From a virus (lineage: Duplodnaviria > Caudoviricetes): a DNA stretch of 57,719 bases. Positions 5,747 to 33,170 of the stretch are shown piece after piece (position 1 is the first letter of the stretch; each line of letters starts with the position of its first letter). A program made the translations under genes and the position numbers. The notes beneath the pieces were generated by a model that was given only the letters and a program-made list of their open reading frames with translations, was not told the DNA's origin and searched no databases. The stretch is from IMG/VR virus record IMGVR_UViG_3300037963_001723, positions 1 to 57,719 of that record; one strand, written 5' to 3'.

Positions 5747-6337
5747 CTATACGCCTGTTGCTTTATCGTATGCATGCATTCCTGCGTTGAATGTCACAAT
5801 AAGATCAGTATATGCATCTCCTGCTGTGCTTTCTCCGCTTTCAACGAATCCAAGTATACGAAGTGGTAGAGTGTTAGTTGTAGCGACTGTACTCGCATCT
5901 AGTGCATTTTTGCTTCTACCAATATCTGCACTACCTGCTGTTTGTACAACGCCTGCGTTTTTACCAAATGCGTCTTTCGTTACAGCGCCATCTGCTTGCA
6001 TTCTGAACTCTACATTAGGATCGTCTAAGACAATCGCTTCGATATCAGAAGCAGCAATTGGTTGGTTGTAAGATTGAGCAAAGGTAAGTTGATTGGTGTT
6101 AGGGTCAGTATATCTAACTCCTAAAAAGATACCAATAGGTGTTAATGTTGCAGTTCCAGTATCTTTAGCGATAGTTGTTGTTGCTCCATTATCTACTAGC
6201 TTAACGAAATCACCATAGAAAATACTTGTAGCATATCCTGATGCAATCGGAATATGTCTTGTTTTTCCACTAAATGATCCACTAGCTGAAGTAGTTCCTA
6301 CTGGCTCTGCACCCATAGGTGTAGCTGTTGTAGCCAT
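5747..6337 (-). CDS. Capsid cement/decoration-type protein
   Basis: 196 aa, Ala/Thr-rich, directly upstream of the major capsid gene. Confidence 0.55.
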   Translation of the reverse strand: MATTATPMGAEPVGTTSASGSFSGKTRHIPIASGYATSIFYGDFVKLVDNGATTTIAKDTGTATLTPIGIFLGVRYTDPNTNQLTFAQSYNQPIAASDIEAIVLDDPNVEFRMQADGAVTKDAFGKNAGVVQTAGSADIGRSKNALDASTVATTNTLPLRILGFVESGESTAGDAYTDLIVTFNAGMHAYDKATGV

Positions 6338-7939: not shown

Positions 7940-8361
7940 ACTCTTTCTATGCCTCTTGGGTCTTGAACGACAGCTTCTACATTGTCGTCATTAATAATTC
8001 TAAATTCTTTGCCGTGTATTTTCAAGCGTGTGCCTGTAAAAGCACGAAAAACAATCCAGTCTCCTTCTTTACACCATGCTCCTGATGGGAATTTCTTCTT
8101 ATCATCATAGCAATCTTCACCCATTTTTAGCACAAAACCTACTACTGTGGCAATCTCTTCCGTTTGTAATATTGATTCTGTCTTATAAATACCACCCTCT
8201 GTCTTATCGTCAGGCTCAGGTAAAGCAATTAAAATTCTATATCCTTTAGGTTCAGGAAGTTGGTTTGCAGTTTCTTTTTCTTCCTTTTCTTTCTTTTCTT
8301 TTCTTTTATCTGTAACTTTTGTAAGTTTTGATGTTGTAGTCATTTCTGATGGTACTCCCAT
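7936..8361 (-). CDS. groES: Co-chaperonin GroES (Cpn10)
   Basis: P.GYRILI, KTEGGI mobile loop, KEGD.IVF, GKEFRIINDDNVEAVV. Confidence 0.85.
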   Translation of the reverse strand: MGVPSEMTTTSKLTKVTDKRKEKKEKEEKETANQLPEPKGYRILIALPEPDDKTEGGIYKTESILQTEEIATVVGFVLKMGEDCYDDKKKFPSGAWCKEGDWIVFRAFTGTRLKIHGKEFRIINDDNVEAVVQDPRGIERV

Positions 8362-8550
8362 TTATTCCTCCATTAATCTAGCTTCTAAATCTGCGACTTC
8401 TCTATCAGCGATTGATAATCCTTCTATAATTCCTATTATTTTTTTATATTGAGCAAAATCTTTAGCAGAACCTTGACCAAGATTCTCCTCATGTTGTTTT
8501 CTCATTTTTTGTAAATTTTGTCTTAAAAGACTAAAAGCTGATTCTGCCAT
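8362..8550 (-). CDS. Hypothetical protein (62 aa)
   Basis: GGAG RBS; small helical ORF just upstream of GroES. Confidence 0.75.
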   Translation of the reverse strand: MAESAFSLLRQNLQKMRKQHEENLGQGSAKDFAQYKKIIGIIEGLSIADREVADLEARLMEE

Positions 8551-30613: not shown

Positions 30614-30823
30614 ATAAATAGTGTCTATGTTAATAATTCGTTTGAAAAATATTTTATCAGGTATATATACATTTTTATCTAACTACTTATTGGAGAGAAA
30701 AAATGGAAAAACTATTGGACATAATGTCATTATATACAATACTAATTTGCCTGCTAAAAATTATATAATAGTCAAAGAGTTTAGAACATCACACAAATGA
30801 ACGCTAATAAAGGGAGAGAAAAA

Positions 30824-31654
30824 ATGCGTGCGCAAACCACATTAACGCCAGTTAAAAAAATGGAAAAAGACATCTTAAACACTGCTAAGGCTTTTAATGA
30901 AACAGAAATAAGAGTTTTAGTAGATAGATATTATCAAACACAAGAAAACAGAAAGAGAAGTGCGAATCAGTTAAGAGCTGCAATAGAAGATGGAGAGGAG
31001 TGTACTGCTCTTACATATCTTCTTGAGCAAGATAAACTTATTGAAAATCAAATTAAAAAGTTTCTTACTGAATTTTCTAATTCTCATAAAGTAGGTAGAT
31101 GGTGTATGGCTAATTACGGTATAGGTGGTGTAATAACTGCTGGGTTATTAGCTCATATAGATATAAAAAAAGCTCCTACAGCTGGTCATATTTGGAATTA
31201 CGCTGGATTAAATCCTGATCAAGTATGGAAAAAGGGAAGTAAAAGACCTTGGAATGCTCAGTTAAAAACGCTTTGTTGGAAGATAGGGGAAAGTTTTGTT
31301 AAAGTTTCCAATCAAGATGAGGCATTTTATGGTCAATTATATTCTCAAAGAAAAGAATTAGAAGTTAATAAAAACGCTTCTGGTCAATATAAAGACCATG
31401 CAGAAAAACAATTAAAAGAAAAAAATTATAATAAATCTACTGTAGCTTATAAACATTACATAAAAGGGGAACTACCTCCAGGTCATGTTCATGCAATAGC
31501 TAAGAGATGGACTGTTAAATTGTTTTTAAGTCACTTACATTATATTTGGTATCAACATGAGCACAGCGACACCCCTCCCCAACCTTATGCGCTGGCCCAA
31601 CTAGGGCATGCTCATTTGATAGAACCCCCTATTAGTCTTGAGGACATTGATTGA
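30824..31654 (+). CDS. tasA: TIGR-associated TasA-like protein (Nop / IS110 C-terminal RNA-binding domain, no nuclease domain)
   Basis: Coiled-coil, then GIG.V.TAGLLAHID, IWNYAGL, WN..LK...W, FYGQLY...K and GH.HA.AKR..VKLFL. No DEDD RuvC and no HNH. A dual-repeat array lies about 600 bp downstream. GGGAG RBS favours the ATG at 30824 over 30797. Confidence 0.85.
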   Translation: MRAQTTLTPVKKMEKDILNTAKAFNETEIRVLVDRYYQTQENRKRSANQLRAAIEDGEECTALTYLLEQDKLIENQIKKFLTEFSNSHKVGRWCMANYGIGGVITAGLLAHIDIKKAPTAGHIWNYAGLNPDQVWKKGSKRPWNAQLKTLCWKIGESFVKVSNQDEAFYGQLYSQRKELEVNKNASGQYKDHAEKQLKEKNYNKSTVAYKHYIKGELPPGHVHAIAKRWTVKLFLSHLHYIWYQHEHSDTPPQPYALAQLGHAHLIEPPISLEDID

Positions 31655-31668
31655 GGGAGATAGGGGTC

Positions 31669-31703
31669 GTGGTGGTTGCTAATTCACTCCTAGTAACCAC
31701 CGC
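31669..31703 (+). promoter_or_regulatory. 13-bp hairpin between the tas-like gene and the nuclease gene
   Basis: GTGGTGGTTGCTA-N9-TAGTAACCACCGC, no T-tail. Confidence 0.55.
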
Positions 31704-31720
31704 ATTCTAAGGAGAAAAAA

Positions 31721-32107
31721 ATGAGTAAAAATAAAAAAGTTGAAGCATTTATATATAATGCTGAATTAGAAAGAGTTGTTGATGGCGATACTATAGATAT
31801 TACTATTGACCTTGGCTTTAATGTTAAACTACATAAACAAAGATGTCGTTTAGCTGGTATAGACACACCAGAATCCAGAACTAAAGATTTAGCTGAGAAA
31901 GCATTAGGTAAGAAAGCATCCGCAAGATTAAAAGAGTTATGTGGAAAAAAATTAAAGATTAAATCATTAGGTAAAGGAAAGTATGGAAGAATATTAGCAA
32001 TACCATACACAGAAGATGGCCAAGATATTTGTAAAATACTAATTGAAGAAGGTCATGCTGTTGAGTATCACGGTGGAACTAAAGTAAAAGTATGGGGGGA
32101 TTACTAA
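31721..32107 (+). CDS. Thermonuclease (staphylococcal nuclease-like)
   Basis: VVDGDT, RLAGIDTPE, KYGRILA, LIEEGHA. Confidence 0.9.
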   Translation: MSKNKKVEAFIYNAELERVVDGDTIDITIDLGFNVKLHKQRCRLAGIDTPESRTKDLAEKALGKKASARLKELCGKKLKIKSLGKGKYGRILAIPYTEDGQDICKILIEEGHAVEYHGGTKVKVWGDY

Positions 32108-32274
32108 TGAAAAAAGAACCAATATTTAAATGGCATGAAAAACTATTAATGTATTTTGTAGCTCTTGTTGTCATAGCATTTATAATTATAATGCAAGATG
32201 TTAAGGCAGAACGAGAAAAGAGCGAAAAGATAAAAGAGTGTGTTCAGTTTTTAGAAGATAATCAAATAGAATAA
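32107..32274 (+). CDS. Small membrane protein
   Basis: TAATG coupling to the nuclease gene, one TM segment; its stop codon overlaps the first array repeat. Confidence 0.6.
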   Translation: MKKEPIFKWHEKLLMYFVALVVIAFIIIMQDVKAEREKSEKIKECVQFLEDNQIE

Positions 32275-32640
32275 ACATCAACATCCAAGAATGAGCCAAT
32301 GCCGATGAACATCATTTCGATCGAACGAATCATGGACTGCGAACATCACAACATATAAATGAACCAGAGGAGTTAAACATCAAATTTTGCGAATGAATCA
32401 TAATTAATAAACATCAAATGAATAGAATGAATCACTAGTCATGAACATCAAGTGATAAGAATGAATCAGGACAAATGAACATCAATAAAAATAAATGAAT
32501 CAATATCAACGAACATCATGGCTAATAAATGAACCAACATACCTGAACTTTATTATATCATAGTGAACCAATGTGGATAAACATCATATCGCTCGAGTGA
32601 ACCACGGACTTTGAACTTCATTAGAGGCAAGTGCCTTTTT
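32256..32640 (+). ncRNA. TIGR-like dual-repeat guide RNA array (11 units, 34-nt period)
   Basis: AACATCA (or AACTTTA/AACTTCA) at 32274, 32308, 32342, 32376, 32410, 32444, 32478, 32512, 32546, 32580 and 32614. It alternates with AATGAATCA-like repeats at 32290 + 34n, separated by unique 9-nt segments. Confidence 0.9.
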
Positions 32641-32642
32641 AT
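32624..32642 (+). terminator. Short terminator-like hairpin at the array end
   Basis: GAGGC-AAGT-GCCTT followed by a T-run. Confidence 0.45.
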
Positions 32643-33029
32643 AGCCATAATTAGCTTAGATTCCTATGCTGAAAAAAAATGTAAAGTCAATCTTCTAATT
32701 ATAGATTAGACCCCCTACTTATTTACTGGGTGGTTTTCTTTTTTTTAAGGAGAAAACCATGGGAGTAGAAATTCTTCATAATTAATAAAGAAAGAAAACA
32801 CTTACTAGTGAACATTATAAGTTTATTAGTGGTGTGTGCTTACGAGTTAACGCTCGACTACGATATTCGTAATTTCATGGATATTGATTGCGCTATAACT
32901 TGTGGCACAAGAAGAAAACTAAATAACGAATTAGAAGGAGAAACATATGACTTTTACTAAATTCTTATCAATGATAATGGTTATCCAACTTCTTGGTGTG
33001 ACTTTGTTTACTATAATTGTTGGCTAATC

Positions 33030-33170
33030 ACGATCCCTGGAATATATATGTAAATTTACAGTTTTGCTTGTTTTGCAAATAATTCTAACAAAATCTATTC
33101 GTAAATTTACATTGCTGGATACGCAGCGTGGAATCATCTGCATGTTAATGGAATAATACTAGTATTATTC
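33030..33170. repeat. Composite intergenic module copy (partial)
   Basis: GTAAATTTAC at 33050 and 33101; perfect 20-bp palindrome GAATAATACTAGTATTATTC at 33151-33170. Confidence 0.8.

Follow-up and report, generated by a model that had tools for sequence, protein, structure and literature searches.

A probable TIGR-TasA system with 34-nt guide units in the genome of a marine tailed phage

The 57,719-bp virus contig described here (IMG/VR record IMGVR_UViG_3300037963_001723, a single contig with about 33% G+C; the whole contig is the window of our analysis) carries on its plus strand a gene for a nuclease-less Tas protein with a coiled coil and a Nop domain (tasA, 30824-31654; matches to PDB sequences, to folds, and to PHROG). 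About 600 bp after the tasA stop codon (31654), on the same strand, there is a dual-repeat TIGR array of 11 units of 34 nucleotides (nt) each (32256-32638). Two other open reading frames (ORFs) lie in the gap. We are confident that this locus is a phage-encoded dual-repeat TIGR-TasA system.

Each unit of the array consists of an edge repeat (R-AATGAAYCA, 10 nt), spacer A (8 nt), a loop repeat (R-AACATCA, 8 nt), and spacer B (8 nt), in that order. The AACATCA-type repeat is present in 11 copies from 32274 to 32614, in a 34-nt register, with the AATGAAYCA-type repeat between each pair. Scanning both strands of the whole genome for the combined loop and edge motif (up to 2 mismatches) gave 10 matches, all in 34-nt steps from 32274 to 32580, and there were no matches outside the array in the 57.7 kb. 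Self-match at period 34 is 0.68 at the array, and the next-best value in the genome is 0.54, at a coding repeat. (Tandem Repeats Finder detects only the central part of the array, 32376-32533, with periods of 34 and 68.) The initial annotation of this stretch, which was made from the sequence alone, described two alternating repeats with an exact 34-nt period over 11 units; the register and the motif scan bear this out, and the eleven segment pairs that it listed are correct and correctly paired. It also described the variable segments as unique 9-nt stretches. The segments are real, but only 8 nt of each vary: across distinct units of the same repeat type, position 9 of the two segments is a purine in 42 of 44 and 43 of 44 cases, so we count the spacers as 8 nt.

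The array was said to follow the ORF that ends at 32274. This location is right, but the edge and spacer A of unit 1 are inside the 3' end of that ORF: unit 1 is made of a degenerate edge (AGATAATCA) and its first segment there. At the other end, the second segment of unit 11 contributes to a terminal hairpin. Because spacer B of unit 11 falls in the hairpin, the number of functional guides is likely to be 9 to 11.

Dual-repeat arrays begin and end with truncated edge repeats (PMC12045711). This array begins with a degenerate edge (..ATCA) and ends with a 3'-truncated edge (AGTG..), followed by the hairpin and a run of U. Given the published rule, and because the array ends in a truncated AGTG... 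copy, we assign AATGAAYCA as the edge repeat, within which processing would take place, and AACATCA as the loop repeat. The arrays of five relatives (L003, L005, L184, L185, and L187; we number relatives by locus) also end with a truncated AGTG... edge that leads into a hairpin and a T-run, and the SpTIGR array of Salicola phage CGphi29 likewise terminates within its AAGCGAGCCA edge repeat. It follows from this assignment that the segment before AACATCA and the segment after it form the correct guide unit. Independent support for this pairing is that the units that are kept between phages are kept as exactly those segment pairs. In TasR arrays, box C is CCA and box D is UG (PMC12045711). The box C feature is present here, as both repeats end in YCA (10 of the 10 first units scored; TCA in 9-10 of 10). 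As criteria for a dual-repeat TIGR array, we used alternating repeats of 8-12 nt, spacers of about 8-9 nt, and 5-15 units beside a tas gene; here we found 11 units with repeats of 10 and 8 nt and spacers of 8 nt, 600 bp from tasA on the same strand.

The start codon of tasA (ATG at 30824) is preceded by a strong ribosome-binding site (GGGAGAG), and the product has 276 amino acids; a longer reading of the ORF, from 30797, has 285. The position, size, and strand of this gene are as in the initial annotation, and we found the motifs that it named (GIG, YAGL, and GH.HA.A.R..VK.FL). In a phmmer search of the PDB, the protein matched TasH from Salicola phage CGphi29 (E = 1.6e-11, query residues 15-277) and TasR (E = 1.8e-10). 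A profile built from 24 sequences matched TasR (6.8e-22), TasH (2.7e-13), IS621 (1.9e-4), and ISCro4 (4.4e-4). An AlphaFold model of the protein (predicted local distance difference test, or pLDDT, 86.7; predicted template modelling score, or pTM, 0.83) has long helices at residues 35-64 and 70-95 (285-residue reading), followed by a helical domain. The two long helices would form a coiled coil, in agreement with the initial prediction of one. In a Foldseek search with this model, the 10 best matches are all chains of TasH or TasR (E from 1.8e-7 to 2.6e-6, including 9w04_B and 9mty_B), and the IS110-family recombinases ISCro4 and IS621 occupy ranks 12-17. Modelling followed by Foldseek had been suggested as a check on the TIGR-Tas identity, and with TasH and TasR at the top, the IS110 family next, and no Nop5 chain listed, it came out in favor, as did the sequence matches. 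The protein also belongs to PHROG family phrog_4285 (7e-49), which is labelled "transposase"; this label is a naming legacy.

We found no nuclease domain in this protein. Pfam gave one partial match to Transposase_20 below threshold (residues 108-142, 18 bits versus a cutoff of 21.3) and no HNH, RuvC, or other nuclease family, and the PDB alignments agree with this, as the initial annotation had proposed for RuvC/DEDD and HNH. With 276-285 residues, the protein is smaller than TasH (354) or TasR (331), and the alignments begin at residue 48 of TasH and residue 124 of TasR. The first 47 residues of SpTasH (the TasH of CGphi29) have no counterpart, and H54 of SpTasH, whose mutation to alanine makes the enzyme catalytically inactive (PMC13421893), aligns with a lysine. 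By these alignments, the phage protein is of the TasA subtype, without a nuclease domain. A C-terminal PY....GH motif aligns, with the same spacing, with Y289 and H296 of SpTasH, which are the catalytic residues of guide maturation (PMC13421893). The pair in the phage protein is Y264/H271 in the 285-residue numbering, or Y255/H262 in the 276-residue numbering. H271 is at least 90% conserved among 24 relatives, and the model gives the loop that bears the pair a pLDDT of less than 50, as would suit a flexible loop. Homologs are numerous: 3463 of 3939 scored candidates have E ≤ 1e-3, and nearly all of them have 260-290 residues.

Three other identities were considered and rejected. An IS110-family transposase should have an N-terminal DEDD (RuvC-like) catalytic domain, which is absent here, and a complete Transposase_20 domain that includes the catalytic serine, whereas the Transposase_20 match is only partial and sub-threshold. 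A box C/D small nucleolar ribonucleoprotein component should have a Nop domain with a fibrillarin-binding domain at the N terminus, and Nop5 chains as its nearest relatives; no Nop5, Nop56, or Nop58 chain is among the 10 Foldseek matches listed below E = 0.001, which are all Tas chains (an eleventh is a further chain of one of these entries), or among the PDB sequence matches. A CRISPR-Cas system would have cas genes and one repeat of 25-36 nt with spacers of comparable length, versus the alternating repeats of 8 and 10 nt and the 8-nt spacers seen here; and we compared the seven ORFs between 28514 and 33686 to Pfam and found no Cas family.

TIGR-Tas systems, including TasA from phages, were published in 2025 (Faure et al., PMC12045711), and the repression of both a reporter and chromosomal genes by a DNA-binding TasA (MbTasA) was described in a 2026 preprint (Xu et al., 10.64898/2026.09.09.750476), so the initial annotation overstated the novelty of the locus. 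TasA binds a processed guide RNA (tigRNA), whose tandem spacers recognise both DNA strands (PMC12045711). In dual-repeat systems, a Tyr/His pair processes the guides (PMC13421893; 10.64898/2026.09.09.750476). From this published work on other Tas proteins, we propose a mechanism for the phage system. The array would be transcribed with tasA or after it. A dimer of TasA would bind the precursor and use the C-terminal Tyr/His pair to cut inside each edge repeat, which would yield about ten tigRNAs of 34 nt. Spacer A would then pair with one strand of the DNA, spacer B would pair with the opposite strand in the neighboring stretch, and the nuclease-less complex would stay on the DNA and block transcription or replication.

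To compare this locus to its relatives, we used an alignment-based search of viral sequences, which returned 427 stretches, of which 80 loci were kept. (A single-protein search of viral contigs found none.) Another 45 loci are from bacterial and archaeal genome contigs; these TasA relatives are all at most 55% identical to the phage protein and are spread over many phyla. A periodic signal was found in 68 of the 80 viral TasA loci, and in 61 of these 68, the period beside tasA is 36. A period of 34 was found in L003, in L005 (just below the threshold), and in two genome loci, and periods of 35 and 37 were also found. Dual-repeat guides are stated to have a fixed length of 36 nt (10.64898/2026.09.09.750476). 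This statement has exceptions, this clade among them: units of 34, 35, or 37 nt are present here as well as in other lineages, and 36 nt is the most common length, not a fixed one. Specifically, the TasA lineages of L095, L103, L107, L011, L038, and L068 have dual-repeat units of 34, 35, or 37 nt. In the L095 array, the loop is GAACAGCA and the edge is GAGCGAGCCA.

The exact repeat type of the phage array is rare, as we found it in just 4 IMG/VR contigs and 25 metagenome contigs. We collected 31 arrays of this type from marine samples; 27 of these are distinct, and together they hold 122 distinct guides. The variable segments therefore do vary among related phages, which bears on the initial annotation because it had named invariant segments as an outcome that would speak against it. 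Sixteen guides recur in at least three arrays. Across the marine arrays, the core guides are mostly in the same order, while the other units turn over. L184, L404, and L405 share guides 1, 7, 8, and 10, together with the second half of guide 5, with the array described here and keep them in the same order; in L184, guides 1, 7, 8, and 10 are identical to those of the phage at all 16 variable positions. The TasA of L184 is 57% identical, and the flanking DNA is 67-82% identical in seven alignable segments. That four guides are identical despite diverged flanks implies either selection on the guides or recombination of array segments. In another subgroup, guide 3 is found as unit 1 or 2 and varies at a single position, the second of spacer B. 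L001 retains guide 2, and guides 4, 6, 9, and 11 are unique to this phage. That diverged marine phages have retained these core guides is an argument for their being in use.

The units that are unique to one array sit mid-array, between conserved first and last units. These arrays would thus change by internal insertion, loss, or recombination, unlike the one-ended growth of CRISPR arrays. We also note that one 62.5-kb contig (L187 and L184) bears two arrays of the same type about 7.5 kb apart. The first is directly downstream of tasA. The second, with five units, is about 7.5 kb upstream (L187, about 8340-8545, plus strand); its first unit is the conserved guide 3, and it is followed by a separate terminator.

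Several observations weigh against our view that this is a working TIGR-TasA system. The 34-nt unit differs from the 36 nt published for dual-repeat guides. The conservation of guides could partly reflect recent recombination of array segments instead of selection. The closest relative (L001/L002, with TasA 72% identical) has lost most of the array as well as the catalytic histidine, and in this lineage the system is dispensable. Both repeats begin with R-A-A and there is a UG inside the edge repeat, and simple R:Y pairing held in only 7 of 10 units; from sequence alone, an equivalent of box D (the UG of TasR arrays) cannot be placed with confidence. The hairpin and U-run at the end of the array (32624-32641, plus strand, including part of spacer B of unit 11) form a weak intrinsic terminator: the stem has 5 base pairs, three of them G-C, its z score is 0.43, and a consensus terminator scan does not call it. 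(At the equivalent position, L003 and L005 have strong hairpins, with z scores of -4.64 and -3.33, followed by T-runs.) We looked for a sigma-70-like promoter directly before the array and found none, and for that reason we assume that the array is co-transcribed with tasA, the nuclease gene, and the small ORF. Finally, when the guides were compared with the phage's own genome and with about 4 Mb of viral loci, their matches were no better than those of shuffled guide pairs.

What is left of the array in L001 (5990-6110) and in L002 amounts to about two isolated units that resemble guides, and one of them is homologous to guide 2. The GHAH motif of TasA reads NNTN in L001/L002, with both histidines replaced by asparagine, and NYSN in P0002. 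Array decay and the loss of the processing histidine coincide in the L001/L002 lineages. Spacer A of the first remnant unit in L001 (about 5997-6005) is the exact reverse complement of the 8-nt spacer A of guide 10 (32571-32578). This may be due to chance (with a probability that we estimate at about 0.003, given the comparisons that we made), or the two may share a target half-site that is read from opposite strands.

Other features of the region bear on how it is expressed and how it came together. Directly after the tasA stop codon there is a stable hairpin with a 13-bp core stem (31663-31708, plus strand; -23.2 kcal/mol, z = -3.24; of 200 shuffles, 1 folded as well). L001 has a homologous hairpin after its tasA (about 5767-5800, z = -2.48), in which both bases of one pair are changed. 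The post-tasA hairpin lacks a following T-run, hence it is not a classic terminator; it may have a role in attenuation, processing, or stabilisation between tasA and the downstream genes. Next is a gene of 128 codons for a staphylococcal-nuclease-like protein (SNase-like; 31721-32107, plus strand; Pfam SNase 1.8e-13; PHROG endonuclease 6e-39). A tblastn search (E ≤ 1e-4) of 131 loci that have TasA or the repeat type of the phage array, among them the syntenic L001, L003, and L184, found this gene in none. In L001/L002, the small ORF directly follows tasA, with no SNase-like gene between them. Over about 140 nt, the DNA of the SNase-like gene is 72-76% identical to endonuclease genes from myoviruses of Prochlorococcus and Synechococcus (P-SSM4, P-RSM3, and S-RIM32), a similarity that suggests gene exchange among marine phages. 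Because none of the 131 loci carry it, and because its DNA resembles cyanophage endonuclease genes, the SNase-like gene is an insertion specific to this phage rather than a partner of TasA.

The small ORF (32092-32274, plus strand; 60 amino acids, with the likelier start at the ATG at 32107, hence 55-60 amino acids) encodes a hydrophobic stretch that is probably membrane-spanning. It matches no Pfam or PHROG family. It is kept between tasA and the array within the clade (by tblastn, 81% identity in L184, 46% in L003/L186, and 38% in L001/L002), and its last 18 nt also serve as spacer A of unit 1 and the truncated edge that precedes it. Downstream of the array is a conserved intergenic block (32663-32700, plus strand; an A-run, then TGTAAAGTCAATCTTCT...) that all relatives share, as seen in L001, L003, L005, L184, and L185; the alignment to L001 is 80.7% identical over 32609-33063. 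This block is possibly a promoter region. The L003 block has a near-consensus promoter on the minus strand (TTGACA, 16-17 nt, TATAAA) that faces the array terminator. Just upstream of tasA is an ORF of 57-59 amino acids (30621-30800) whose position, and in part its sequence, are kept in L001 (4732-4905). It could be a small gene or a conserved leader or promoter region of tasA.

The TIGR locus lies within a replication and recombination module (RecT, a PD-(D/E)XK nuclease, and a primase-helicase). Besides these, the phage genome encodes a portal protein and a large terminase (as identified with Pfam and PHROG), and we found no tRNA genes in it. The nearest relatives of the large terminase are from Phage DSL-LC04 (57%), phage 023Pt_psg01 (55%), and the Pelagibacter phages HTVC027P and HTVC023P (52-53%). 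Nineteen DNA sequencing runs from 11 studies contain half or more of the words sampled from the locus. The runs with a habitat in their label are marine, seawater, or sponge metagenomes, and two of the 19 are flagged as possible sources of this DNA; the contig is therefore from a marine tailed phage.

What might the guides recognise? Cuts by TasR leave 8-nt 3' overhangs (PMC12045711), which imply, by our geometric reasoning, that each spacer pairs with the 3' half of the site as read on the strand that it recognises. A target would then start with spacer A and continue with the reverse complement of spacer B. This is the register that had been proposed at the outset, and it fits the literature (PMC12045711). 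In the phage's own genome outside of the array, using 9+9 nt and both pairing registers, no guide had a match with 2 or fewer mismatches out of 18. At 3 mismatches, there were 3 matches per register, versus 1.1-1.4 for shuffled pairs. Using 8+8 nt with a gap of 0-2 bp and up to 2 mismatches, there were 3 matches versus 3.5 for the control. When we compared the guides from all of the arrays to 365 kb of related phage DNA, there were 15 matches with one mismatch versus 16.7 for the control. Scans of IMG/VR with five guides hit 57, 97, 31, 69, and at least 119 stretches, which is near the estimated chance for 16 specified bases, and the clusters of matches were mostly near-identical contigs or conserved coding motifs (MDCDML, QNIAVG-type repeats, and IPTAYFD). 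The gene family with the MDCDML motif may be a glycosyltransferase, which is our guess from the motif. According to both papers, the natural targets of TIGR systems cannot yet be determined (PMC12045711; 10.64898/2026.09.09.750476). Since no guide matches the phage's own genome above control, the targets are probably outside of the phage, most likely in its host, in competing phages, or in other mobile elements.

It is conceivable, although we think it unlikely, that the conserved core guides are aimed at conserved sites in other phages that share hosts. If so, then the array would be an inherited and slowly edited "exclusion list" in the competition between phages, and the first natural targets of a TIGR-TasA system would be identified. 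We have three leads for this idea. First, guides 2 and 9 have exact matches that lie 1.3 kb apart in the packaging module of a complete 69-kb phage contig (L248, or G001), whose nearest terminase relatives (57%) are from phages named DSS3. One site is on a TGATATAAT box before a gene that, from its position, is a putative small terminase, and the other is inside terL. After correction for the 2.36 Mb examined and for base composition, the double match has an estimated p of about 0.03-0.1. It weighs against this lead that the two sites need different gaps (2 and 1 bp), and there were no further guide matches in the 69 kb of G001 with up to 2 mismatches, versus 2.7 expected. Second, a guide that is present in four arrays matches 15 of 16 positions of the conserved intergenic block downstream of the array in siblings L003, L185, and L408. 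The sole mismatch is at the tolerated first position, and the phages that carry the guide do not have the site themselves. Third, the most widespread guide matches the IPTAYFD-coding stretch of a gene family of about 780 amino acids in 11 diverged, low-GC viral contigs. This family has an HExxH-type motif and acidic stretches. All three leads are weak: they fit the idea of phage exclusion, but none is significant alone.

We weighed three other explanations of the locus. One is that it is a relic, kept by descent and inactive. In its favor, the sister lineage L001/L002 has only about two isolated units and asparagine in place of both histidines of GHAH; in the phage array itself, three copies of the loop or edge are degenerate (AACTTTA, AACTTCA, and AGATAATCA), and the terminator is weak. 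However, tasA is intact and has the Tyr/His pair, 10 of the 11 units are in exact 34-nt register with near-perfect repeats, and several guides are identical among phages whose flanking genes have diverged to 67-82% identity. We consider decay of this locus to be very unlikely. Another explanation is that TasA and the adjacent SNase-like protein form a two-protein RNA-guided nuclease that cuts in trans. The two genes are on the same strand, with the SNase-like gene inside the interval between tasA and the array, and they are probably co-transcribed; and since Faure et al. report no clear protein partners of TasA (PMC12045711), such a partnership would be new. But the gene's absence from all 131 loci extends to L003, L005, L184, and L185, which are syntenic and have the same repeats, as well as to the closest relatives L001/L002, and its DNA resembles free-standing endonuclease genes of cyanophages, as expected for a mobile gene that landed there by chance. 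This lack of co-occurrence largely refutes the partnership, and we give it only a slight chance.

It is also possible in principle that the guides regulate the phage's own genes, with TasA acting as a programmable transcription factor. Regulation of the viral life cycle is listed among the possible roles of these systems (10.64898/2026.09.09.750476), and the locus is inside the replication and recombination module. As matches of the guides within the phage's own genome are not above those of shuffled-pair controls, we find this role extremely improbable. We continue to favor a TIGR-TasA system that would be programmed by the array to bind DNA.

With 20,096 tas loci already catalogued (PMC12045711), this contig may be among them, and the locus is one more TIGR-TasA among thousands. 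Its practical value is that the 57.7-kb phage genome is complete, that near-identical relatives are present in marine samples from 11 studies, and that about 30 arrays can be aligned unit by unit. Both papers name natural targets and the gain of spacers by arrays as open questions (PMC12045711; 10.64898/2026.09.09.750476). A clade with a core of guides, turnover of the others, and a sister that lacks the array and the catalytic histidine is a good test ground for both targets and spacer gain. Also, units that are not 36 nt long bear on how the Tyr/His loop reaches the cut site.

Among known systems, the dual-repeat TIGR-TasA of Flavonifractor plautii (FpTasA) is similar in having a solo coiled-coil Nop protein, an array of alternating edges and loops, and two short spacers per unit (PMC12045711). 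Published TIGR-TasA systems also share the truncated edges at both ends of the array, a terminator after it, and encoding by phages. They differ in that the phage unit is 34 nt instead of 36, its spacers are 8 nt instead of 9, and two ORFs separate tasA from the array. The closest solved structure is SpTIGR-TasH from Salicola phage CGphi29 (PDB 9w02-9w04 and 21kl; PMC13421893), whose array combines edges (AAGCGAGCCA) and loops (AAGACAACCA) of 10 nt each with spacers of 8 nt. Here the similarities are the 8-nt spacers, the design of the edge (AAGCGAGCCA versus RAATGAAYCA), the spacing of the Tyr/His pair, and the phage origin. In contrast, SpTasH has an N-terminal HNH nuclease, which the phage TasA lacks, and cuts DNA; the proteins are only 26.8% identical; and the SpTIGR loop is 10 nt versus 8 nt.

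In its proposed mechanism, the phage system resembles MbTasA and catalytically dead TasR, which are nuclease-less, bind DNA as guided by tigRNAs, and silence genes (10.64898/2026.09.09.750476). That preprint is mainly about stem-loop systems without the Tyr/His loop, whereas the phage system is dual-repeat and keeps the pair. The IS110-family recombinases IS621 and ISCro4 have an RNA-binding Nop-like domain and the logic of a two-part guide in common with the phage system, but the phage protein has no DEDD/RuvC domain, the locus has no transposon ends, and there is an array of many guides instead of one bridge RNA. CRISPR systems of types IV and V-M, which are encoded by mobile elements, bind DNA under RNA guidance without cleaving it, and probably act in competition between elements (PMC12045711), offer a functional parallel, although their proteins are unrelated and they use a single long spacer that pairs with one strand, between repeats of 25-36 nt.

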